A stretch of DNA of 58,464 bases, filler included, from Bipalium vagum (lineage: Eukaryota), in assembly GCA_037834085.1 (NCBI GenBank). It is 3 parts of 3 records of this genome, joined end to end, with 100 filler letters (N's around TTAATTAATTAA, not from the genome) between each part and the next. Parts side by side here need not be neighbours in the genome. Positions count along the whole stretch, not along the records: positions 1 to 23,484 come from JBBMKC010208598.1; 2 more parts are not named here. The stretch is one strand, 5' to 3'. A model generated the notes under the pieces. That model saw nothing but the letters and a program-made list of their open reading frames with translations. It was not told where the DNA came from and did not search any database. This document shows, piece by piece, positions 4,755-18,622 of this stretch (the stretch's first letter is position 1; each line of letters starts with the position of its first letter). The translations under genes were made by a program, and so were the position numbers.

Positions 4755-6411
4755 AACACACATGCATACGCCTGGTTTTTTATTCTGATATTTTTCGGTC
4801 GATATTTGTTGTTTACTCCTTAGTAGAGTAGTTTGGGAAATTTCGGATTTATTTTTAGATATTGTTTAATTGTGTAAGTGATGATGAAAAATAGCGAAAA
4901 AAAAACACGCTTTCTCCACAATGGCCAGAAATTAAGTTAAATTTGTAGACTCAAGAATATTATATCAATATCGACCTGCCTCGATATTACAAATGCATTA
5001 TTCTACCTTTTTTATTTACGATATTTTATTATTATTTATTAATATTATCTTCAATATTATTAATTATCTTTATTTTTATCATTGATTATTATTACTATTA
5101 TAATTATCACCATAAAATAGTAATATTATTGGTTTTATTGTTAATGTTAATAATGATTATCAATTATTATTTCCCAATATTTTTATTATAACAACAATTT
5201 TAGATTTTACACGTGTAATATTGAGTGTGGTGTTGATAAATTGTCACATGTACATTATCCTAGTTTTGTTTCTGTATTTTAAAAAACTACGGTTATCAAA
5301 GAGTAGCGCGACGGATGGTTTCTAAACCTAATTGGTAGTGTGTGTGGTACCGTTATTTGACGCTGTCATCATTGTGGGACAGTCCAAATTGAAATATTTC
5401 ACATTTGTATTAGAGAATATTATTATTATTATTTGTGTGTTTAAAATTTTTGTGGCTTTATTTTTCTATTTATTTTTTTCTATTTTATTCTAATGTTTTT
5501 GAAAATATATTAAATACAATAAAAATTGAGTCGTTATATATTTCTTTTTATCGATCTATGTCGCGTTCATCATGACATTTTTACAAACACATCTTGGTCG
5601 GTGTGTCAAAAACTGTTTATTTGACATATGATGATTATTTGTGTTTTAAAGTCTGTGTACAATGCTACAAAATGGATTTTTACAATAATCAATAGATAAA
5701 TAACCTTCATAATCGATTATTCATCTGTGTTTAATTGATTTAAAAAAAAGCGGGCACCATTTTTTCGAAGAGATTACATTTACTTGCAATAAAACTTTGG
5801 TGCTATTTTCCAAAATAGTTGTATATTATTGTTGTCTCATCGTAGTCAATTTCATCAGTTTACACAATAAAAGTGGGATGTGACGAAAGGATCACAAATG
5901 TGATGAACCCCACTTGTCCTCATTTAGAATTCAATATGCCTATTTAACCAGGAGGATTTTTTTGATCTGGTTAGAGTGCTCATGACATTTTTGTTTTTTC
6001 AATTTGTTAGAAACACGTATTTTAAAAGGATGTTAACATCGATCTGTCTTTACATTGGTAAAAATGGTTTTACATGTTATCATTATTTTACCATTATGCA
6101 TAACTTCTTAATTAGATTATTGTTTTATCACATTGTAATTGTTTTATGCGATAATGGATGGGTTATTTTGTTTTGTATAACTTATAACTGGTCAATATGC
6201 TAGGATTTTCTTTATTGTTAAGCAGATAGAAAACCTTATTTTAACAGCATTTTATTTTACCTTAATATTTTCAGAATCTCAATCTCATTAACATATAATA
6301 ATAATTATTATTATATATCGTTTGAGTTTATAAATCGATGTCTTTATTGTCTGGTTAATATTTATTTGTGTTTACAATTTTTTAGGCGAGCTTATTAGTT
6401 TTTTGTGTAAT

Positions 6412-9400
6412 TTAAGGCTTATATGAATTTATCTCCATTTGCAGATATTTTCTCAATTTTGCTTCTGCTAGTTCCATTTGTATTTTCATTTTTGCCAATC
6501 GTGGTTGTTCAATTTATTGAGTTTATTATAAATAAATATTGGATTTAAGATTTTATTTTTTATGAAAAGAATCGATAAAAATGTTAGTTCAATTTCCTAT
6601 GAAATTATTAATATATCGATTTGTTAAATATTTTCCTTTTCTTGTATTGATTCTTTTGTTTCATGCATTTCTTTAGCAATTTTTTCATGATCTGTTACCT
6701 TCATAGGAAAGGAAAGTTCAATGTTAGCAAGATAATCTGGATCGATTGGCAAATTTTCCAATTTGGTTTTTTTTAATCGTAGAATCATTTTAATTAGTGC
6801 ATCTATAAAGTCCTCTAAGCATACATGGTATTCTATCATTTTTCTTTCCATGGATTCAGAGCTTGATAGAAAATTAAGGCTATCAAGTTTGACTGTCAGA
6901 CTCATCCATGTTTTGTTCAATTGAGTAGTTACCTAAATAGATAAGCAAAATAGTTATAAAATATTGTCAAGTTTAAGTAAATATTGGATATTTGTAAGTA
7001 TAATATATAAATTATTTTATTTAATTCTCACAATTAATTTAAATGAATTTTAATGAAAATACATCGCTGTAAATACCAGTGTTTATTAATAAAATTTTTT
7101 TTGTGATTTATACACACTAGTCAAAGACTAAGGTTATAATATTAAACACGAGAACCCATGTCATATCAAGAAATTTAGACTAAATTAAAGAAATATCTTT
7201 ATTTTGCCAGTTTAAATAAGTTCGTGTTTATTTCAGGTAAAGTAAATGTTCCATAATTTGAAATTATTAAAATATACGTGTTTTATATAACTTTCGAATA
7301 TTACTAATTTTATTTCTATTCTTAAACTTTATTTCTACATCTCCTTATATATACTGTTCGATTGACATATTTCTAGATATGGTAAAAATAATAGGTTAAA
7401 CTATAGATGAAGAAATATACAAAGTTAAAATGATTGAAAAGTTTCGATATCTATTTATAAGACAAACAAAACTAATGAATCTGATGAGATCAATTCTAAA
7501 TGATGAGTTGTTGCAACATAAAGCTGCGCAATTTTCGGAGGATCCTGTGTTATTAGAATTTAGAAACTCCAAGTTGGCTGTCTAAATTTAAGAAATATAA
7601 TGGGCAAAAGCTAAGAAAGCTTTACACCGAAATGAAGACTAATTAATCTGTAAATATTCAAAACTTTAGATTTTTATTGAAAAAATTCGAAAAATATCTA
7701 AAACCTTGATGAAACAGGTATTTTAAAAAAAACAATTCCTTTAAAATCCATTTAAAAAATTGCAAACTCGGGCCAAAAATTTTAAAGATGTTGTAAGATC
7801 TATTATGTTCTGTAGAAATTACTCTAGTTCTTACAAAATGAAAGTTGTTAAGTAGGAAAGTAAGTCAATCTATTGTTTAAAGACACAGGAGAAATCATCA
7901 ACGAGAACATGGATGAAAATTAATAATTGGCTTTCTAATTTTAAAGAAAAGTTTAAAATTAAAAGAAAAAGAATTTCATTGTTTATGGATAATTGTCCAA
8001 TACACAATATTAAAATCGAGTTAACATTTATCGAGATTTAATTTTACCTAAAAACAGTCCTGGTATTCTTCAATACATAAATTGTGGTATCATTAAAAAC
8101 TTTAAACTTTGTTGTTAAAATTGTTTTACTTCAATTGTTTTATTAATCTATTTTTTCTAAATTTATTTTAATATTTTTATGTTTATGATATTCTATAATT
8201 TTGTCTCATTCAAAGGTTTCCACATTTTCGATGTCCGAAAATTCAATTATATATTACATATTTATTTAATTTAATCACACCCCATTACATAAAATGTTTA
8301 TAATCACAATTTTTTAAAATTGAACCTGAAATCCCATCACATAAAATAAAATGTTTAACTACATTAAAATTAAAATCATATGAAATGTAAATATCTTTAA
8401 TCAAAAAATCACACTGCATTGATGTTTTGAACTGTATTGATACTGTTCTTCTTGATACTGCACTATCTCCTTTTCTTCTTTATTTCTGATTCCCACATTT
8501 CTCCCTGTTTTTGAGTCTTCATCCCGAAAAGTATTTCTTCAATTCATGAATTTGTACAAAACTTTGTGTAAGGGTCTTTTTCAATGATTTTTCATTAACT
8601 TGTTCTTGCCATGGAGTACAGATAAAGTTGTAAATTGCTATCATTTGCCGACAGTTTCTTTCGCTTCGTAATGTTTATTCTGTCCACATTGGTAGATCCA
8701 AATTTTTCGCTATGAATCCAAGTCTAAAAGGGTTTGTTGGGGATACTAAGTTCTTATTTTTTATTGCTGGAGCTGTTGATAATTCTCTGAGACCCTGTAC
8801 TATTGATATTAGGATTTTGCAAATATTCATAACGTCATAGATATTATATCCCGCTATTACTTTGTCGTGCATCAGGGTTCTTAGGTAATATTTGAAATGA
8901 AATTCATCCTTTCCATGTTCTTATTGGTCTTCAGTTATCCCTGTTTGGAGAACATTAATGGTTAATACTCTTTTCTGGGTGCTACTATTGTGTTTAACAA
9001 TATCATGCCTTGTAGATCCATTAAAGTTGCCGATAATATTTCTTGAGTTTGATTATGACCATCTTTCATAGTAGTTATGGCCAACATGCGTATATTTTCA
9101 GGGTTTATTTCACTGTTTGTAAAAGTTATAGATTCCTTGTTCTCCAGTTGTTTCTTGCACTGGTGGAATTCCTCAGGCATTGTTTCAATTTTAAATGGGG
9201 TTTCTGTAAAGATAGCTTCCACGGCTATTATTGTATCATTGTTTTGAATTTCGTAACATAGGCTATTTTGATGTCCGTTTAAGTTGGATGGGGTTAGTTC
9301 CAGCTATCTGTAATAGAACTTGGTTTTTTATTACATGTGTGTACATGTTTTCGGTTAGGCGTCCTTTTTTTGTTGCGCTTCTGATTAGGTCTTTTCCATT

Positions 9401-12400
9401 TAGAGTTAGACCTGGTTTGTTCATGTGGAAAATCCATAGGCTTCTATTTTGTATTTCATTCGTTTTACATTGATTGGGAATATCTTTTGGCCTTGGATAA
9501 TAGAGGAAATTTTTATTGTTATTTTTCAATTTTTTCTGCCATCACTCTATAAATTTTGGTACCTTCTTGGTATTTTTCTAGTATGGTGTCTGCAGGTTGA
9601 TTTGGGAGATATTTCGATATTTGAATCGTAGTCATAATTGGTTTTTTTTGAAATGGTTGAATTGCGTTGAGTTTGGATTGCGTACCTTGTATTGTATTGA
9701 ATTGGTTGATTGCTGGAGACTTTTTTGAGTTTATGGTAATTATGATTAAAACTGAAAATATAAAATTAAAATTGGTTTTATATACAAAAAGGTTTTTAAT
9801 TGATTGGTTGTGCATGTTTTTATAAACCTGCACAACCTGTAGTAATTGTCATTTTGATCTTTGATATAATTGTCTTTTATTGGCTATTTTTACGATTAAT
9901 ATTATTATTATCATTATGCCAATTATTATTATTAATATTATTATTAAAATTTTTAAACTTGTCTTTACAATTTTGCCTCTTAAGTCTTTCATACTTATTT
10001 CCAGTATCTTTAGCAATTCTTCGTTTTCTCTAGTTTGCTCGTTAACATATCGTACGAATAATGGTTCTAATTCTTCTTTTCTTTCTTATAATGTTTCTTT
10101 ATTTTACTGATGAGTAATCTTTGTAAGTCTTCTTTTGAATTGCGTTGCACCTTTGATTTTGATGTCGTTTGTTGTATCTGTTGTACTTGTGCTTCTTTTC
10201 ATGCAAATATAAATAAATAACTTGTTGTCTTTTCTTAAACCATTGCCAATCTCTGTCTTTTTTCATAGGGTCATCTTCTTTTAAGTTCTCCTTACAATGC
10301 CATTCAGCCATTAATTTATAATTTTCTGTTTTATCTATTATAATGTTTCTTTGATTTTTGTTAAATCTTAATGCTCCATATCGGTATTTCAGATATTTTT
10401 CTCCGTTCCATTTTCCTAATCCATACATTATCATTTCTGCTTGAGTTATATTGCTCCAAACTTTCAAAATTCCATCCCCTTTTCATATTTTATTATTGGG
10501 ATTTCTTTCTCATAATTAACAGTTTTTTCGAAATTATTTTCCATATTGCTTATGGTGATATTGATTTTTTGTTTTTGTCCTTTTGGCAAATTTCTACTAC
10601 TGGTGGTTGTGAACTGAAAGTATCATACACTGTTTATCTGAGTATCTCATCACAATAATTATTACACGTTGTCATGGCTTTTTTATTATTCCATACGCTT
10701 TTATTAAAATAACTTCTTTCTTTTCTATTAATTTAATATTGATTCCACATGCTGATAGACCTCTTCCTTGACCTTTATCTATTATGGTTAAGAAGATTAA
10801 TATACTAAAAAAATGACATTCCGCTTGAGTTTGACTGTCTTGACGAACTTGTTGTTGTTTTTGAAGAATCTGTTGTACTTTCTGAGGAGTCTGTTTCCCA
10901 TTCTTCCTCTCAATATTTTGTTATTTCTTCTTGTTTTCTGTTTTCCTTTACTGACTTTATTTCTTGTATCTCTTCTGTGTTTACTTCGGTAGTCATCTCT
11001 TCTGTCTCTTCACACATTTCTTCGGTTACTTCTTCGTCTGTTAATAATGCTTCTATATCCAAATGTCTCATTCTCCCTTCAGTTTTAATAGCTGTTTCAT
11101 GATTGGCTTTTGTTTTATGTATTAAAATATCTGCTCTTGTTAGCAACATTTTTATAATATTCTGAGCATCTTTTATTCCTGCTGCTATATGTAAAGCTGC
11201 TTCTTGATTGGTTAATTCTTCTTCATTAACGTCTACCACATATTCTTCGTTTTCGTTTGTAACTTGTAACAGCTTTTGTACTCCTTCTTCGTATAAATTT
11301 ATCACTGAGTTCTGTAATGGCGAATAGTACTGATTTTCTGTTCTAGCTGATAGTTGAAATTGTTGTTGCTTTATTGCTTCTTGTATTAGTATTATTATTA
11401 GTATTACCATTCGATGGCATGGTCTATTGCTGATTTTCCTACTTTATCTCTGTTTTCTATTGCGCATCCTTCTAATAATAATGCTATTATAAATTCTTCT
11501 GTAAATTTTCCGGCTGTTACTAACATGATAGCTGTATGTCCATACATGTTTTCCTTATTTAATGACCATAAACAAGTATTTTTTACTATTTTCAATATTT
11601 CCCAAGCTTGTTCCTCCTTGTTTTTTAATATTGCATTATTAAAAGGAGTATCTCCATATTTATCTTTCAAAATAAATATTTCCGGTAACTACCATGCTAT
11701 CTGATTAAATACCTCTTCTTTTGTCATTCCTAAAGCGAAGTTGTGCCAAATTTTAGCTATTTTTCCTAATACCACCATGATTTCTTCTTTTTCATTACTA
11801 TTTGTATCCGTTTCAATTTCTTCATCTATTGATGTTCCTTCGCTATTACTCATTGAAAACAATTCCTTGAATCTTTGAGATCCTTCATTTCTTTTAGATA
11901 CTATTACTAAATTTACTTTTCAGTTGGTATATTTTTATGAAGCTTAGGTATTACTGTTCCAAAGAATAATTGAAATTTACCATTAAGTTAATTATTTTTG
12001 ATAATAATAATAAATCTAAAAAATCTAATAATACTAATAAATCTAAATCTAATCTACGCATTTGGTCGATTTTCCACAATTTTTACATCATGTCTAATGT
12101 TTTGTCCTTGCAAGATTAATTGCATTTCCAATGTTCCAATTAATTCCATTCTTCCTTTATGGATTCCTTCAATAATTATTGTGGTAATGGATTCTTTGTA
12201 TTACTGCTATTGATAGCATACTAATATCAAATACCGTAAATTGTGTTCCTGTATCTATTAATGTTACCTGTAATCGATCGTTGATTGTTAGTGTTATCAC
12301 TGGACGAGTTTCAACTTGTTCTTGGTTTCTTCTTAGCATCGTGCATTGTAATATTGCTCCTTGAGTCCTTGTTCTTATTTTTAATATTAATTCTACCAAA

Positions 12401-15400
12401 ACTAGATACACAATTACCTTAAAATATAGTAATAATAGTCAAATAAAACTTCCTATTCTCATTCCTGTTATAAATTCTTTTAATCCTCTTATTATCTCTT
12501 CAGATTCCGTATCTTATTTTATTGTTTTTCATTGATTTTCCTTCATCAAATATTGTTAAAAACAACAGTGAATGGAATAAATATGGTATTCTTGGAGCTT
12601 TATATGGTCGAAAGTTGTATCTTGGTTGACTTTCCGTATTTTCCTTTCTTTGTTTACTCTTGTCTTGTTGTTCTGGAAATGTGTTTATTACATCTACTGG
12701 TGTTATTGTCTCAAAGACTTTTGTCATCGACTTATACAGTCTGCATCGATTTGCATGAACCAAAATTGGTTCTTTATATGGTTTCTTTGAGTTTAATAGA
12801 ATTAGATTTGTATTTAACACTTTAACTTTATAAGGTCCTTTAAAGGTTCTAGTTAATTTTCCTGATTGTCCCTTTTAATTATTGGTGATTTCAGCATGAC
12901 TAGGTCTCCTTTTATTGTTACTCCTTTTGCTTATTTGTCGTACTGCTCCTTCATTATTTTCTGATTATATTTTATAGATAATCCTGCCTTTTTCCATATC
13001 TCTTGTAATCTTTCTCGCATTATTAATAAATAATTTTCTTCATCTGCATAATGTGAAGTTGTTGTATAAAATATCAGATCTACAGGCATGTTTGTATCTC
13101 TTAAATACATTAGATAAAATGGTGTATAGCCTGTTCCTTGATGTACAGCATTTCTATAAGCAAATAAGCATGATGCTATTTGTACATCCCAATCTATTTG
13201 AGATGAATTTACATAGGATGTTAACATTTTGGCTAAAGTATAATTGAATTTTTCTTCTAGTCTAAAAGTTTGTGGATAATATGGTGAAGTATTCAGTTTC
13301 ATGATTCAAAAATAATCATTTATACTTTTGATTAATTCACTCATAAATTCTGTCCCTTTATCAGTTAGCATTTTCTTAGGTACACCATATCGAAATACTA
13401 TTTGTTCTACAAATCTTTTAGCGATTGTACTAGCTATATGGTTTGGTATTGCTAATGTTTCTGGTTATTTAGTGAAATAGTCGCAAACTACCAGAATATA
13501 CATGTTTCCTTCTTTTTTCTCCGGAAATGGTCCTGTTATATTCATTGCTTTTGCTTCCATGGGTGCTAATTGTACAGGCATTGGTTTAATGGTAATTTTA
13601 TTTTGCTACCCGTATTTTTTCTGGTTTTACATATTTGACATGTTTCACACTATTTTCTGACATTCTGTATAATGCTAGGCCAATGATATTTCTGGTAGAT
13701 ACGTGATAATGTCTTCCTATTAGACAAATTTCCTCCTAATGTTCCATCTTGATATTGTAATAAAACTGATTTTCTAAGTTATCTTGGTATTATGTGAAAT
13801 GCATCTAAAAATTCTCTGTATCGCAATACTCCCTTTATTTCTTCATAATTTTCCACTGATTTATTCTTTTCTTTTAATTTTTCACGGATACTTATTAACT
13901 CTCCATCTGCACTTTGCATCAATCTAAATTGTTCTTGATCATTTAGACACCGAATTACTATAAACACATTTATTCCTGATTATACTGTATCTACTGCCGC
14001 AATTGGTGGTCTTGATATGTTTGGGTAGATACTGTAATGGATTATGATCTACTAGTACAATTATTTTTCTTTCCATATATATGTTCGAAATTTTGATACT
14101 GCATATACAATTGCTAAACATTCCAATTCAATTGTAGCATAATGTTTTTCATGGTTTTTCAATCCTCTACTAGCATATGCTACTACACAGTCTTCTCCTT
14201 CATCATTCTTTTACCCAAATACTGCTCACATGGTTACTCCACTAGCGCCTGTCATTAGGTAAAATATTTTATTTAAGTCTGTATATCTAAGAATAGGTGA
14301 AGATGTTTTAATATTTGAAATGCCTGTTCCTCTTTTTCTCCCCAGCAAAACCCTTTGTCCTTTCGTAATAAGCATTTAATTACGCTGCAATATGTGCAAA
14401 TGAGGCTGAAAATTTTCTATAATAATTGGATAATCCTAGAAAAACGTGTACCTGTTTTACATTTTTGAGGCTGCTGCTTCTCGTACTTTTTCTATTATTA
14501 TTGGATATCCTCTTTGCCGATATTACATGTCCCACATATCTGACAGAGTCTTTTCCCCATTCACATTTTGGTGGTTTAATTTTAAAACCACTTAATTTTA
14601 TTTTTTTCAGTACTTCTTCCATATCATTAAATGTTCCTCAAAATTTACTGAATACACTGTGATATCATCTATATATACCATGGTATGTTTTAAATCCATT
14701 AACATAATATTTATACTCCTTTGGAAAGTGGCTGGTGCACTTGTAAATCCAAATGGCATTTTGTTGAATTCAAATAACCCATTATCAGTAACAAAAAAGT
14801 TATAGGTTTCGATTCTTCTTCTGTTTCGATATTCATATATCCTTTTTGTAAATTTATTGTGACAAATATGTTAGCTTATCCTAATTTGTCAAAAATTTCT
14901 TCGATTAGTGGTAATGTAAAATTATCTTTAATTGTTACATCATAGATTTTTTCTGAAGTCAATGCATTCTTCATTCTCAATCTTTCTTTTTGACTAATAG
15001 CATCGGTGAACTGACTGACTAGCTCTTATTACTCCACTTTAAGCCAACCTTTAACTTGCCTATCTACTTCTTCTGTAAGTACTTATGATATTCTATATGG
15101 ACGTTGCTTAATGAGTGTTAGATTTGTTAGTGGCATGTTATGTTTTAATACTGTTGATGTACCCAAGTCTTACTCATGTTTGGTAAATGCTTCTTTATAC
15201 TTTCCTAATAAATTGGTAAATCTGATTTGTTGCTTTCTGATCAGACTTGGCGTATTTATTAATACTGGCTCGTATTCTTTTCTATTGGCAACAACGAGCC
15301 ACATTTGTATGGGAATATCCACGTATTTTCTGGTGGTCGACCGACGATTACCCTCTAACAATTGTTGAAGAACTTCATCATCAGTGATTGCATCGCGACC

Positions 15401-17113
15401 TGGATGTGGTTCATCTTGAAGTGAGAAATCACCAGCTTCGAATTTCTTGAAAAAATTGTAGGTCTGTTTATTGACTGTATTTTTACCAAACGCGTAGCAA
15501 ATTTGATCATTAGCCTTGGTTGTATTTTGAATAATTTTGAAGAGTTAAAGCAACAACACGCGGATATTTTCTTTTGATAGATTGTTGTTGTCAGTCAGTT
15601 ATGAATGAATGATGAAACTATTGATGAATATTATTGATTGTTTAAGTAGGTCACTAGATACAATTTATATAACTATATATCACATATATTAATAATAAAA
15701 AAAATTATTGTTTTTTCAAGCTTTTTTCAAAAATATTCGAATTGTTTAAATTTCACGGTTTCAATCTGATACATACACACATACATAAATAATGATTTTA
15801 AAATAAAAAATTCCCATGGTATTGATAAACCACTTATCAGAGTTAAATTAAAATATGTATAGAATAATGATTAACATAAATTATTATTTATTGTTGAAAA
15901 TATAATTTTACATAGTTCCACAAAGTAAGAGATAATCATTTTTCTCAGATCCCAGGAAAACAAGTAATTATTGTATTTTTTAATAAACGAAAAATTTTTA
16001 TTTTATAAAATTAAAAATCCTGAATATTTTTATAATTTTAACAGATCTAATTTGTAAACGAAATAATATAATAGTAAAAGTGGACATTATAGCTTATGTG
16101 ATTCATTAAAAGAAACTAAAATATATTGAGAAATTAATCAATTTCGGTATTGTTCTTAGGTCTTAACGTGAAATGAAAGCTCAGAAATTTTCCATTATTT
16201 TTCCAACACCAATCACTAGTACAATTTAAACAAGAGATTAAAAAAAAGAATTGTAAAATCAGCTTAGTTAGGAAAACAATTGATTTAAAATTGGATATTG
16301 GTCATTTAAAATCAATTTTTTTCTGATATAAATAGAAAGAAATAAGATTTTCTGATCGTGCACATTTAATCTTATATACAACAGATTTTAGTAATTAATA
16401 AATATGTTCTCAAAACATAAGATCAAATTATTGTGAAAAATTTTGAAATTATTATATAATAGTTAATATTTTTGGAAAAATCGATATAATAAATATCTGA
16501 TTTTTATGTAAGCATACTTAGTTTTTATAAGTTAATAAATTACTTTTATATAAAAAATATCTCATATAAATTAAAGGTTTTATACAAAAACACTAATATA
16601 ATATAATAAAATAATATAAAATAAAATATTAAATAAAAGTATAAATTATGCATTTGGTTAAAGTCAGAGTAAATTTAATAAATTCTACAATATTTTAATA
16701 AATAACAATTATAGTTACTTGGCCCAAATTCTGGATAGCTCTATCGATGATTTTTTTTACATCATTTGAAAAATTTGTGTTCTTAGTACGCCACTTGTTG
16801 ATATTTCGGGTCTGTTGAGTCAATTCGATTAAAATAGAATTTAATTTATTTAATCGATTGAAACGAGTTCTTTGGGCAAGGGTTGGCTTAGGATTATCTA
16901 GATCAAGCTACAAATATCATAATTTCATCCAGAAATTTGTTTCAATACCTGTTTTTGCATTGGAGCCAGATAATGTCTAGTGATTAACCTTGATACATCA
17001 TTTAATTGGATACATATTTTTTCAAGAGGATCTATTAATTCTTCTCCAGGATTGTTGACCAAAATTGCTGGTTTTTGAACTTTGTTTTCGTCGACTTTAA
17101 TTGATTTTGCCAT
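6412..17113 (-). CDS. Uncharacterised helical/coiled-coil protein, spliced; 3' end uncertain or damaged
   Basis: Exon 1 is 16949-17113 (ATG, 55 aa), followed by a 41-nt GT-AG intron. Exon 2 is 16719-16907 (63 aa, open). After a ~9.8-kb GT-AG intron, exon 3 starts at 6932 (VTTQLNKTWMS...) and reaches a stop at 6624. All junctions are phase 0. A further coding-like segment lies at 6412-6596. Confidence 0.65.
7350..8250 (+). mobile_element. Decayed pogo/Tigger-like transposase fragment
   Basis: CENP-B-type HTH remnant (DELLQHKAAQF...WLSKFK) and DDE_1 remnant (LFMDNCPIHN...FLPKNSPGILQYINCGIIKNFK). Confidence 0.75.
8590..9100 (-). pseudogene. DEDDh 3'-5' exonuclease-like domain (ISG20/REX4-like) in the retroelement cargo
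   Basis: ILSATLMDLQGMILLNTIVAPRK(fs)RVLTINVLQTGITEDQ*EHGKDEFHFKYYLRTLMHDKVIAGYNI...RELST...FRLGFIAKNL aligns by eye with ISG20 LARCSLV..HGAVLYDKFIRPEGEITDYRTRVSGVT...LLKGKLVVGHDL...YDTS...VSLRVLSERL. Confidence 0.65.
9860..10820 (-). pseudogene. Env-like type I membrane protein remnant in the retroelement cargo
   Basis: Signal-peptide-like MSFFSILIFLTIIDKGQG, then a Cys-containing segment, a helical stretch (EQTRENEELLKILEISMKDLRGK), a transmembrane segment LKILIIILIIIGIMIIIILIVKI and a basic ANKRQ. Confidence 0.5.
11030..11670 (-). pseudogene. Ankyrin repeat region (~5 repeats) in the retroelement cargo
   Basis: KDKYGDTPFNNAI, KENMYGHTAIMLVT, ENRDKVGKSAIDHAIEW, NQEAALHIAAG...IIKMLLTRAD, KANHETAI. 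Confidence 0.8.
12010..12310 (-). pseudogene. Retropepsin-like aspartic protease located downstream of integrase
   Basis: RPVITLTINDRLQVTLIDTGTQFTVF...IIIEGIHKGRMELIGTLEMQLILQGQNIRHDVKIVE...LDFL, i.e. DTG motif, flap-like segment and a degenerate LGxDFL. Confidence 0.78.
15295..15660 (-). mobile_element. mariner transposase N-terminal (HTH) fragment
   Basis: ENIRVLLL...ICYAFGKNTVNKQ...FKKFEAGDFSLQDEPHPGR...LQQLLEGNRRSTTR. Confidence 0.85.
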
Positions 17114-17385
17114 TCAGTAATGTATTTTACAATAAATCGATTTACACATTTGTTCCCTGTATTTATAGAATTTCATATGCTTAATGAATAGAATTGTGTG
17201 CATGTAAACAAAAAAATGTGTGCAAAAGTAAAATTCGAAGCTTAATACGTTCTAAATTTCTTAAACAAAAAATTTAATCCTTATATTACTTAAATTACTT
17301 ATGATTTAAAATTCAGATTATATTAACAAATTATCATTGTTGTTTAATCGTATTATTTATTTAAATACAATGCAAATATTTAAAT
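17114..17385. promoter_or_regulatory. Putative bidirectional promoter
   Basis: 272 bp between two divergent ATGs (17113 on -, 17386 on +). Contains GTGTGCA twice and a forkhead-type TGTAAACA at 17203-17210. Confidence 0.45.
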
Positions 17386-18622
17386 ATGTTTAAGATACGA
17401 AAAGATGAGTTGGAAAAAATTAAAAGACGACGTAAAAGAAAATGCAAATTGTCTAATGATTTAGCAGCATTACGATCATACAATGCTTTCAACAAGCATA
17501 TCCAGGCAACAAAATCGAAAATTGAAAACAGTCGCTTTCAAAATGGTCTGGTTGATGATGGCCGAAAACTGACATTGGGAATTTTTGATAATGCTTTATG
17601 CTCCAAAGTATTGAGCTTGACAAATGTTATTTGATATTCAGATAATTTCAGAACATGGAAAAAAACCTGAAATACAGACACAAAGATCGAAACATATCTC
17701 CAAAAACCATTCACAAACGTGCACTTAAGAACAAAGAAAATGATGTTACAATCAACATTGAACAAGTCCTACAGGATATGACCGAAGACTGTCGTCAGAG
17801 ATTGTGGATCACTGATTTGGACGGCGGAAGCAACCAGACTGATTTGTATCGATATAAGTTAAGACTGGCCAAATTGGAATCGAAGCAGAACAGTCGACTC
17901 TGTATTTTGGAAAACATTGAGGTAGAAGCAATTGAGGATAAGTTGAGCATATAAATATATTACTGATCTAGACTCAAAGAGCCAATGACGACCGTCTCCG
18001 ATTCGAAAGAGCGCCACATTCTTTTTTAGAAAAGTTCAAAGAATATGAGATCAATAATAATATGAATGATAAAATCAATAATCATAAAATCATTAATATA
18101 ACCGATAATAATAAAATCAATAATTCAGTCGATCATCATAAAATCAATAATTCAGTCGATCATCATAAAATCAATAATTCAATCGATCATCATAAAATCA
18201 ATAATTCAATCGATCATCATAAAGTCAATAATTTAATCGATCATCATAAAATCAATAATTTAATCGATAATCATAAAATAAATAAAACCCACAACTCAAT
18301 TGATAATCATAAAACAAATAATATAAGCAATATTGATAATAATATTGATTTATCAGATAAATTGATCCATAAATATCCAGTTCTGTCATCCTCAACTTCG
18401 ATTTTCAATTCTCGTATCAACTGTCGTCCTACTGTTTCGCAAACCCGAATCAAAGTGCCCATCACACCTCTGACAAACTCCAAAGTCACCCATCCTTTAT
18501 GGGACACACCTGAAGAATTACGCACTTCATTTCCGAATGTGTTCTCACACCGGTCCATTCTTGATAGGTCCTTGAACGAAGCTTTCCGGTGTGAGGACAG
18601 CAGGAAAATTTGGCTTGACTGA
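17386..18622 (+). CDS. Uncharacterised ~380-aa protein with a basic NLS-like N-terminus and Asn/His-rich 9-aa repeats
   Basis: Exons 17386-17607, 17652-17921 and 17972-18622 are joined by 44-nt and 50-nt GT-AG introns. This merges three ORF-track ORFs into one open frame. KRRRKRK lies near the N-terminus. Confidence 0.75.
18070..18320 (+). repeat. 27-bp coding minisatellite (KINNSxDHH), about 6 good copies plus degenerate flanks
   Basis: Unit ATAAAATCAATAATTCAGTCGATCATC repeated in tandem with variants. Confidence 0.92.

Follow-up and report, generated by a model that had tools for sequence, protein, structure and literature searches.

Burro elements exceed 25 kb in total length, have long LTRs, and live in planarian hosts, and errantivirus-type Gypsy elements carry env as ORF3. 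Burro and GYPSM1 are giant planarian Gypsy elements (Jurka 2007; Grohme 2018; described in PMC6431247), and the PMC6431247 description of Burro already lists a multidomain cargo that includes ankyrin, env, Bcl-2, SUMO-like, and dUTPase-like motifs. Exonuclease ORF3s have been described in the bdelloid rotifer LTR elements Juno and Vesta, where a role in 3'-end processing was proposed for them (PMC5408684). The ANK domain of the planarian secretory cell nidovirus has its closest homologues among RHD-ANK proteins of Schmidtea and Dendrocoelum, and a role as an IkB mimic has already been proposed for it in print (PMC6211748).

The window analyzed here (the whole stretch of 58,464 nucleotides from Bipalium vagum, assembly GCA_037834085.1, in three joined parts) holds what is probably a variant of these known Burro-type cargo retroelements. 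The locus is probably best explained as a decayed copy of a Burro-group Gypsy element whose relatives combine polyprotein cargo with separate exonuclease genes, a cargo that would likely blunt host defences.

A dead Gypsy copy followed by coding sequence

Gypsy-type domains in the Ty3/Gypsy pol order of reverse transcriptase (RT), RNase H, and integrase were recovered by Pfam and tblastn over ~15250-12700 of the minus strand (Table 1). The RT/RNase H region gave tblastn matches to P0004 and P0019, and the integrase shares 54 to 58% identity with those of P0004, P0019, L001, and L002. Pfam gave no match in three minus frames of 15500-18000, and neither gag nor env, nor a first protease or an LTR, was detected beyond the mariner fragment. 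Both ends of the copy are broken, and it lacks long flanking direct repeats. Among the sequencing runs listed, a single one, possibly the source, contained the sequence (share 0.72), and no RNA run did. The copy is a 5'-truncated, decayed Gypsy retroelement and is itself dead.

Table 1. Features of the retroelement copy and its 5' border, in window coordinates
Feature	Coordinates	Strand	Evidence
Mariner-type transposase fragment at the element's 5' break	15300..15600	-	Pfam HTH_48 E 1.9e-5
Reverse transcriptase and RNase H, decayed	14000..15290	-	Pfam RVT_1 2.4e-11, RT_RNaseH_2 1.2e-20
Integrase (Zn finger, core, GPY-type tail), decayed	12600..14000	-	Integrase_H2C2 8.8e-13, rve 3.7e-8
Hydrophobic stretches, one weak and one strong, between integrase and extra protease	12330..12600	-	Hydropathy
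Extra retropepsin after integrase, two frames, DTG at ~12255	12060..12330	-	Pfam RVP E 0.016
Ankyrin domain, 5-7 repeats	11090..11790	-	phmmer E 6e-24 to 5e-5; tblastn; tree
Linker, acidic then Ser/Thr-rich	10830..11060	-	Sequence
Internal signal-like stretch and ectodomain, ~290 codons, at least 5 pieces	9950..10830	-	Hydropathy 2.0
TM segment, short basic tail, stop; likely ORF1 end	9849..9950	-	Hydropathy 3.95
Remnant of a separate ORF2: N-terminal domain and dead DEDDh-type fold	8400..9660	-	Profile, alignment

Behind the integrase, on the same strand, lie ~4.1 kb (~1,360 codons) of coding-like sequence (12.5-8.4 kb). The minimum-break cost of this cargo was 26.5, compared with 68.3 +/- 4.6 in 60 Markov resamples (z -9.1), and the 3' flank gave z 0.0. 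The reading path from 12874 to 8400 contains 22 breaks. Cargo and pol have the same A-rich strand makeup and have decayed to a similar degree (6.5 and 8.7 cost units per kb), as expected from one insertion. Pfam searches of whole frames found no cargo domain; weak matches to RVP and Ank emerged only when short pieces were searched.

A preliminary description of the locus had reported Gypsy pol followed by decayed coding cargo on one strand, which the Pfam domains and the resampling support, and the RYNFRPYK stretch that it placed at the integrase C terminus is present. Its statement that the integrase tail runs in frame into the cargo holds for the intact relatives only, as the window has a stop and a frame change near 12500, after the integrase tail. 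The retropepsin that it placed after the integrase matched the family profile (iE 0.0018; collinear second half, iE 0.72), with no match in the reversed-sequence control; the protease tree did not resolve the placement of the window row. The hydrophobic segments and acidic/Ser-Thr linker that it listed were also recovered, with stretches at ~12438, at ~10824 (signal-like), and at ~9944 (the TM segment). The two stretches ahead of the extra protease reach hydropathies of 1.43 and 2.69 over 15 aa; they gave no significant match to the relatives and have no counterpart at that place in L001, L002, or P0019.

Intact relatives and the position of the module

In three relatives (L001, L002, and P0019), a single ORF1 encodes RT, RNase H, integrase, a protease, a dead protease, ankyrin repeats, a hydrophobic stretch, an ectodomain, and a TM segment (2368, 2220, and 2387 aa; all 5' open), indicating that the cargo belongs to the element. 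The linkage to pol proposed for the window thus recurs at other loci, in 3/3 relatives with integrase and ankyrin in one ORF, and the long polyprotein with several retropepsins envisaged in the preliminary description is found as well, with three or four copies in each relative. By tblastx, the window is collinear with L001 and L002 over the whole series RT, ANK, and exonuclease. An origin of the cargo by independent insertion of host genes was rejected, since in the relatives it has no introns, keeps the same order, and shares the reading frame of pol. Mismatch between L001 and L002 is 0.14-0.30 at second positions and 0.49-0.60 at third positions in all six cargo parts; at the level of sequence comparison, every cargo part is shown to be under purifying selection.

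The contigs of the relatives are partial, and the 5' half is absent in the window, L001, L002, and P0019; the layouts of P0002, P0003, P0010, P0019, P0020, and P0037 were read from protein sequence only. A protease upstream of RT is present in L001 and lost in the window. L001 and P0037 share a conserved domain between protease and RT (E 2e-21), which may be dUTPase-like and had no Pfam dUTPase match. The intergenic repeat of the relatives occurs in the window at chance level (1 match versus 0.87 expected), family profiles picked up no trace of ORF3 or ORF4 in the rest of the window, and 3/3 scans of viral contigs returned no relative.

The protease-ankyrin-membrane module lies after the integrase in L001, L002, and P0019 or before pol in P0020, P0037, and P0003, with the order PR-PR-ANK-hydrophobic-PR plus a pre-RT region in P0037. 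In P0020, the module's ankyrin is joined to a Ty3 capsid (Gag), CCHC knuckles, and Bcl-2, as well as to a fusion protein of the mononegavirus type (Monjiviricetes; E 5e-94). This env of ~640 aa stands in frame between gag and protease, ahead of pol, and P0020 thereby shows the Burro combination of such an env with Bcl-2 and SUMO-like domains (PMC6431247). By sharing this ankyrin and carrying these marks, P0020 supports the Burro link drawn in the preliminary description, and ankyrin repeats in a giant polyprotein are seen both as the window remnant and in relatives' ORFs of over 2200 aa (5' open). Judged by these shared domains, the window element is likely related to the Burro group of flatworms; a flatworm host is suggested by the same marks together with the kinship of the ankyrin.

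Like Burro, the element has a Gypsy pol inside a multidomain polyprotein with ankyrin repeats (PMC6431247). It is set apart from Burro, as the text of PMC6431247 describes it, by the protease-ankyrin-membrane module behind the integrase, the three or four retropepsins per polyprotein, the fibronectin-III (FN3) membrane protein of the relatives, and the paired DEDDh ORFs. A literature search found no published postintegrase protease-ankyrin module, FN3 cargo, or pair of DEDDh ORFs, though such a description may exist in Grohme 2018 or Lee 2026. The preliminary description knew of no such combination, parts of which are on record: ankyrin, env, and multidomain cargo in Burro (PMC6431247) and exonuclease ORF3s in rotifers (PMC5408684).

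Ankyrin domain and its cellular relatives

The earlier count of about five ankyrin repeats stands (Table 1), and the domain is 41 to 45% identical to those of relatives, with tblastn E values down to 3e-40. The only named match was Dendrocoelum lacteum BCL3-1, a planarian protein (E 2.6e-15) with a weak RHD match (E 7.5e-4, below Pfam's cutoff) and no PDB match to its RHD. Human BCL-3 is the best PDB match of one member of the ankyrin family (E 3.7e-9), and in a profile search of PDB it is outscored by KIDINS220 and designed repeats. The closest cellular relatives are of the RHD-ANK/IkB family, by a margin that is modest against PDB. In the ankyrin tree, element and host-like rows fall in one branch (support 98/94), which also includes the generic long-branch P0018. 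With a branch length of 1.48, the window row attaches at an open fork, and the tree resolves neither the direction of capture nor the donor. A complex predicted from the N-terminal half of BCL3-1 and the P0004 ankyrin scored 0.00, which counts neither way. On sequence kinship, a host NF-kB-like gene is the likely origin of the element ankyrin, and the kinship with RHD-ANK-type proteins lends support to the host-modulating role suggested for it in the preliminary description.

The nidovirus ANK is likewise closest to RHD-ANK proteins and lies within a polyprotein next to a TM segment, although it belongs to an RNA virus and has three repeats (PMC6211748). By analogy, a common donor gene for the two ankyrins is likely. 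Polydnavirus ankyrins and an African swine fever virus (ASFV) homologue, IkB mimics cited in PMC6211748, are also parasite-borne ankyrins that lack a Rel domain. Function has been demonstrated for such mimics in large DNA viruses, whereas for the element ankyrin we infer it, and the carrier is a retroelement.

Membrane protein

In the relatives, ORF1 ends 50 to 60 residues past the TM segment, and the window TM tail aligns with that of L001 (0/300 shuffles). In the window, an ATT-type repeat (9895-9946) and the TM stretch overlap. The relatives' ectodomain is predicted to consist of three FN3 domains (Foldseek E 7e-9 to FN3 chains; Pfam Fn3_Dep-1 E 0.0065), the third of which gave a VIA Z of 9.1 and an rmsd of 2.8 over 80 residues. 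The window ectodomain did not match the profile of the relatives' ectodomain, nor did it match anything in Pfam, PDB sequences, the ESM Atlas, or viral contigs. Its single-sequence model (all-beta, low confidence, pLDDT 53) reached at best a VIA Z of 4.0, with no Foldseek match at E 0.001. Positions 10420-10000 have a residue spacing that may be TNF-homology-like, a likeness unsupported by any search run. The mismatch of the ectodomain, together with the hydrophobic stretch without a counterpart, suggests that the window copy represents a distant subfamily. As in errantiviruses, a signal-ectodomain-TM protein stands behind the integrase; in contrast to them, the relatives' membrane protein is fused to pol, built of FN3 domains, and not a fusion protein. 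The preliminary description had an env-like protein in this place, a reading that gains no support: the relatives have the FN3 protein there, and the P0020 fusion env lies elsewhere.

Exonuclease reading frames

The DEDDh-like exonuclease of the preliminary description is retained as a fold at about 9250-8594 (family profile iE 1e-6; tblastn E 1e-7), or about 9110-8594 within the ORF2 remnant, but neither as an active enzyme nor as part of the polyprotein. The catalytic D, E, D, H, and D residues are absent in the window and in 5/5 ORF2 proteins and present in 2/2 ORF3 proteins, and in both relatives with DNA the fold occupies separate ORFs (ORF2 and ORF3), contrary to the proposal of one polyprotein through the exonuclease. 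Two adjacent pieces of the ORF2 remnant gave profile matches (iE 2e-6 and 3e-5; best reversed match, 0.32), and the window piece at 9541-9266 aligned with L002 ORF2 (0/300 shuffles). The window exonuclease is of the dead ORF2 type, whereas ORF3 of the relatives is an intact DEDDh protein similar to ISG20, REX4, and SDN1 (Pfam RNase_T 1.5e-11 and 6.5e-9; SDN1, ISG20L2, and ISG20 in PDB at E 2e-14 to 8e-12). ORF4 of L001 gave a ubiquitin/SUMO-like match (E 0.04-0.1). The dead protease and the dead exonuclease are among the parts with low second-position mismatch.

Juno and Vesta also have a separate exonuclease ORF behind pol and possibly a dUTPase between protease and RT (PMC5408684). Their exonucleases are intact and DEDDy (RNase D-like), whereas the flatworm-element family is DEDDh with an intact and a dead paralogue, and no ankyrin is named for them in the PMC5408684 sections on these elements.

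Alternative explanations

It is possible, though doubtful, that the element is simply Burro as curated, or Burro-2 to -4, with its domain order and exonuclease ORFs already in planarian genome papers or Repbase. The motifs listed for Burro (PMC6431247), the Burro marks of P0020, and the SUMO-like match of L001 ORF4 would fit, but the PMC6431247 text names one protease, no FN3 protein, and no exonuclease (Grohme 2018 and Lee 2026 may differ), and the relatives show two layouts. An unlikely alternative is that the cargo serves the host or the element's own life cycle, with the ankyrin as a generic scaffold and the exonuclease trimming ends of element RNA or DNA. Ankyrin repeats are generic, Burro1 IAP cargo has been reported to protect stem cells (PMC13465017), and the rotifer exonuclease proposal (PMC5408684) is of this kind; yet the closest cellular relatives of the ankyrin are RHD-ANK-type proteins, and genes of that kind also supplied the ankyrin of an unrelated RNA virus of planarians (PMC6211748), a pairing that points to a specific ankyrin target.

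The window could also be a chimera in which one element's pol is followed by a protease-ankyrin part that lay ahead of pol in another element, inserted in nested or tandem fashion. The layouts with the module before pol, a hydrophobic stretch ahead of the window protease such as an env tail would leave, and the slightly higher scores of that protease against pre-RT proteases (56 and 50 versus 45-49) speak for this. It is nevertheless quite improbable: the order ankyrin, membrane protein, stop, and ORF2 is that of the postintegrase layout, there is no RT behind the membrane protein, pol and cargo have decayed evenly, and the hydrophobic stretch does not match the P0020 env. Highly improbable is a single self-processing polyprotein from pol to exonuclease in which a fusion-type env after the ankyrin makes the element infectious. 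The few breaks from integrase to 8400 and the signal-like stretch and TM segment flanking an ectodomain without an assigned fold are compatible with it, but in 3/3 intact relatives ORF1 terminates behind the TM tail, the corresponding place in the window is occupied by a stop (9849), the exonuclease has its own ORF in 2/2 relatives with DNA, and the family's fusion protein precedes pol while the relatives' ectodomain is FN3.

Proposed mechanism and implications

Under the preferred explanation of a Burro-group element with host-directed cargo, the retropepsins would process the polyprotein and release the ankyrin domain into the cytoplasm, where this product of a captured host NF-kB/IkB-like gene may mimic IkB by binding a Rel-homology factor of the host. 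The internal signal sequence would route the membrane protein to the surface of the cell, to act perhaps as an exchangeable adhesion protein or decoy receptor and not as a fusion protein. The two exonuclease-family proteins, expressed from transcripts of their own, may trim or clear nucleic acid intermediates, with the dead one able to bind but not to cut.

More tentatively, and with considerable doubt, these elements may form a flatworm retroelement clade with a portable NF-kB counterdefence cassette: an IkB mimic, a swappable FN3/TNF-like decoy, and an ISG20-like exonuclease with a selected pseudoenzyme twin. The mimic and the decoy would each be released by retropepsin copies of their own, so that the block could sit before or after pol; the IkB mimic would stem from the kind of host gene raided by the planarian nidovirus; and the surface decoy would be FN3 repeats in the relatives and possibly a TNF-like domain in the window copy. 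Retrotransposons are usually viewed as silenced by small RNAs, not as opponents of innate immune signalling; if this is true, a retrotransposon would carry an immune evasion kit like that of a large DNA virus.

With the window copy dead, the value of the locus lies in its intact relatives, in which the two positions of the protease-flanked module suggest a way for giant retroelements to acquire cargo and move it around. Should the ankyrin prove to be an IkB mimic, a nidovirus and a retroelement, which are unrelated parasites of planarians, would have converged on one class of host gene, the poorly known NF-kB-like pathway of flatworms would be a real antiparasite defence, and the ankyrin would offer a direct handle on that pathway in an RNAi-friendly animal.

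Coding state of the window element

The element on the minus strand of the window is genuine and decayed; it belongs to a cargo-rich family of Gypsy elements with a link to Burro, the giant Gypsy elements of flatworms. It lies in AT-rich, animal-type DNA (GC mostly 0.2 to 0.3), probably from a flatworm to judge by the ankyrin kinship and the Burro marks described below. This DNA also contains exons of host genes encoding an NHL-repeat protein, a clathrin adaptor small chain, a Frizzled-domain protein, and PDE4, together with numerous DNA-transposon scraps. The reverse transcriptase (RT), RNase H, and integrase zinc finger and core domains of pol are above Pfam cut-offs; the 5' end of pol is lost at a mariner fragment (Pfam HTH_48), and the three minus frames of positions 15500 to 18000 gave no Pfam match. 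The 4.1 kb past the integrase is coding-like, with the cheapest path through three frames costing 26.5, whereas 60 Markov resamples cost 68.3 +/- 4.6 (z -9.1); z was -4.6 to -6.4 for each of three cargo sub-parts and 0.0 for the 3' flank. Pfam alone gave only weak matches in the cargo (RVP, E 0.016; Ank_2, E 0.0014). The preliminary description had the integrase running in frame into the cargo, a reading that fails for this copy, which is interrupted by 22 breaks from 12874 to 8400, starting near 12510.

Features of the window and of related loci
Feature	Location	Strand	Observation
Open frame, 216 aa	17972-18622	+	No Pfam match
Tandem repeat within this frame	18027-18323	+	27-bp unit, about 8 copies, 91% matches
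Decayed Gypsy pol	15290-12600	-	
Ectodomain pieces	10420-10000	-	
Acceptor-like stretch	9780-9755	-	T-rich, ending in CAG; between TM stop and ORF2 remnant
Exonuclease fold of ORF2 remnant	9250-8594	-	Two adjacent profile matches, iE 2e-6 and 3e-5; best reversed match 0.32
Decayed pogo/Tc5-type transposase fragment	7350-8120	+	Adjoins 3' end of element; HTH_Tnp_Tc5 weak, E 0.23
A-rich stretch	6100-6950	-	Same strand as element
Open frame within it, 102 aa	6624-6932	-	No match to Pfam or relatives' ORFs
Membrane-protein tails	L001:6900-7109; L002:6450-6663; P0019 C terminus		Shared short motif; end T-x-V in 3/3
Gap before ORF3	L001:8744-9042; L002:8250-8591		G-rich motif common to both elements, directly repeated (2 copies)
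Fourth ORF	L001:10906-11517		Ended by contig edge; helical and ubiquitin/SUMO-like domains (Pfam E 0.04-0.1)

Linkage of the cargo to pol in relatives

Searching 1.84 billion proteins with one cargo frame, in which stops were written as X, gave 17 matches, each of them by way of the ankyrin piece; intact members were obtained by further searches and a metagenome scan that gave 2 loci out of 55 candidate stretches. The linkage of cargo to pol proposed from the window recurs in two DNA loci (L001, whose ORF contains protein P0004, and L002) and in protein P0019. Each has a single ORF (ORF1) encoding RT, RNase H, integrase, an intact and a degenerate retropepsin, ankyrin repeats, a hydrophobic stretch, an ectodomain, a transmembrane (TM) segment, and a tail of 50 to 60 residues. 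All three proteins that combine integrase with this ankyrin show this layout; P0019 has an additional intact retropepsin past the ankyrins, and L001 retains the usual protease upstream of RT. The window is collinear with both loci through to the exonuclease (RT, 41 to 66% in pieces; integrase, 57%; ankyrin, 42 to 45%). In all six cargo parts, L001 and L002 differ much less at second codon positions (0.14 to 0.30) than at third codon positions (0.49 to 0.60); selection therefore maintains the cargo even in the dead protease and the dead exonuclease.

P0020 (2713 aa) combines this ankyrin with a Ty3 capsid, CCHC knuckles, Bcl-2, a Monjiviricetes fusion protein, and two retropepsins, the domain set that marks Burro in the review of Arkhipova and Yushenova (PMC6431247, section 7). 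A domain pair resembling that of the fourth ORF of L001 stands, by eye, behind Gag in this polyprotein. P0037 has the order protease-protease-ankyrin-hydrophobic-protease, its last protease and the domain behind it aligning to the pre-RT region of L001 (E 2e-21), and P0003 has ankyrin-signal-short ectodomain-TM-protease. From these orders the protease-ankyrin-membrane block occupies two positions: before pol in these three proteins, as judged from protein sequence alone, and after the integrase in L001, L002, P0019, and the window.

Probable origin of the ankyrin domain

Only one match of the ankyrin is a named protein, BCL3-1, from the planarian Dendrocoelum lacteum (E 2.6e-15). The front half of this protein matches the Rel-homology domain weakly, below cut-off (E 7.5e-4), and has no match in PDB. 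The top PDB match of one family member is human BCL-3; in a profile search of PDB, KIDINS220 and designed repeats score above BCL-3. In a tree of 29 rows (the window and 28 of 29 candidate proteins; P0032, which gave no alignment, was left out), the element rows fall together with four host-like rows on one 98/94 branch. This branch is separate from the generic ankyrins, except for one long generic row placed within it, and has no firm internal order. The kinship to BCL3-1 and the common branch make capture of the ankyrin from a host gene with Rel-homology and ankyrin domains the likely direction of transfer. Three unnamed proteins (P0009, P0014, and P0017) combine a beta-rich front half with an ankyrin domain of this family and seem to be additional divergent host genes of the NF-kB-like type. 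In the available part of Saberi et al. (PMC6211748), the ankyrin of a planarian nidovirus is closest to Schmidtea and Dendrocoelum proteins of the same kind and is proposed to be an IkB mimic.

Membrane protein and exonucleases

An env-like protein had been suggested behind the ankyrins; neither this nor a fusion protein at this place finds support, the relatives' ectodomain being FN3 in a predicted model. This model, built from four relatives (pLDDT 53 overall, 75 to 84 in the third domain), matches FN3 chains (Foldseek E 7e-9; VIA Z 9.1, rmsd 2.8, 80 residues), in agreement with Pfam Fn3_Dep-1 (E 0.0065) and, as a lead only, ESM Atlas FN3 clusters at 0.80. The window ectodomain gave no match to the relatives' ectodomain profile, whereas its TM tail aligns with L001, so the ectodomain slot seems exchangeable. 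The T-x-V tail ends have the form of class I PDZ-binding C termini.

In L001 and L002, the stop of ORF1 is followed by two more ORFs after gaps of 173 to 342 bases. ORF3 (443 aa in both) has an intact C-terminal DEDDh domain (Pfam RNase_T, 1.5e-11 and 6.5e-9) with PDB matches to SDN1, ISG20L2, and ISG20; ORF2 is paralogous to ORF3 and lacks the catalytic residues in 5/5 sequences. The exonuclease fold first seen in the window is real, and the match to the ORF2 profile, the missing catalytic residues, and the separate ORFs of the relatives identify it as a separate gene of the dead type, not a polyprotein domain. The N-terminal piece of the remnant also matches, nominally, many pairs having been tried; the window contains no ORF3 remnant. 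In both loci the ORF3 ATG is immediately preceded by a T-rich stretch that ends in AG, likely a splice or trans-splice acceptor; the gap there may also hold an internal promoter or an RNA element.

Comparison with described elements and proposed mechanism

Exonuclease ORF3s of rotifer LTR elements, as described in the available part of PMC5408684, are of the DEDDy type, unlike the DEDDh type here. The available parts of PMC11410931, PMC8532177, PMC13238120, and PMC11848433 contain no domain map, and that of PMC13465017 reports, at second hand, that the IAP cargo of Burro1 aids regeneration. The literature search found no description of the layout, which figures or supplements of Grohme 2018 or Lee 2026 may already show. 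Apparently new relative to the literature surveyed are the post-integrase position of the multi-protease ankyrin block, the likely NF-kB-gene origin of the ankyrin, the surface protein, FN3-built or exchangeable, and the pairing of a live with a dead DEDDh exonuclease.

Beyond the anatomy, conservation, and selection observed here, general knowledge of retroelement polyproteins suggests that the retropepsins would release the ankyrin domain and that the internal signal would send the membrane protein to the surface. ORF2 and ORF3 would be made from their own transcripts, as the sequence before the ORF3 start suggests, and the ankyrin, by its kinship, may act as an IkB mimic. Residue spacing in the window ectodomain pieces is reminiscent of a TNF-homology domain, a likeness that no tool supported; if it is real, TNF-like and IkB-like modules would stand within one element.
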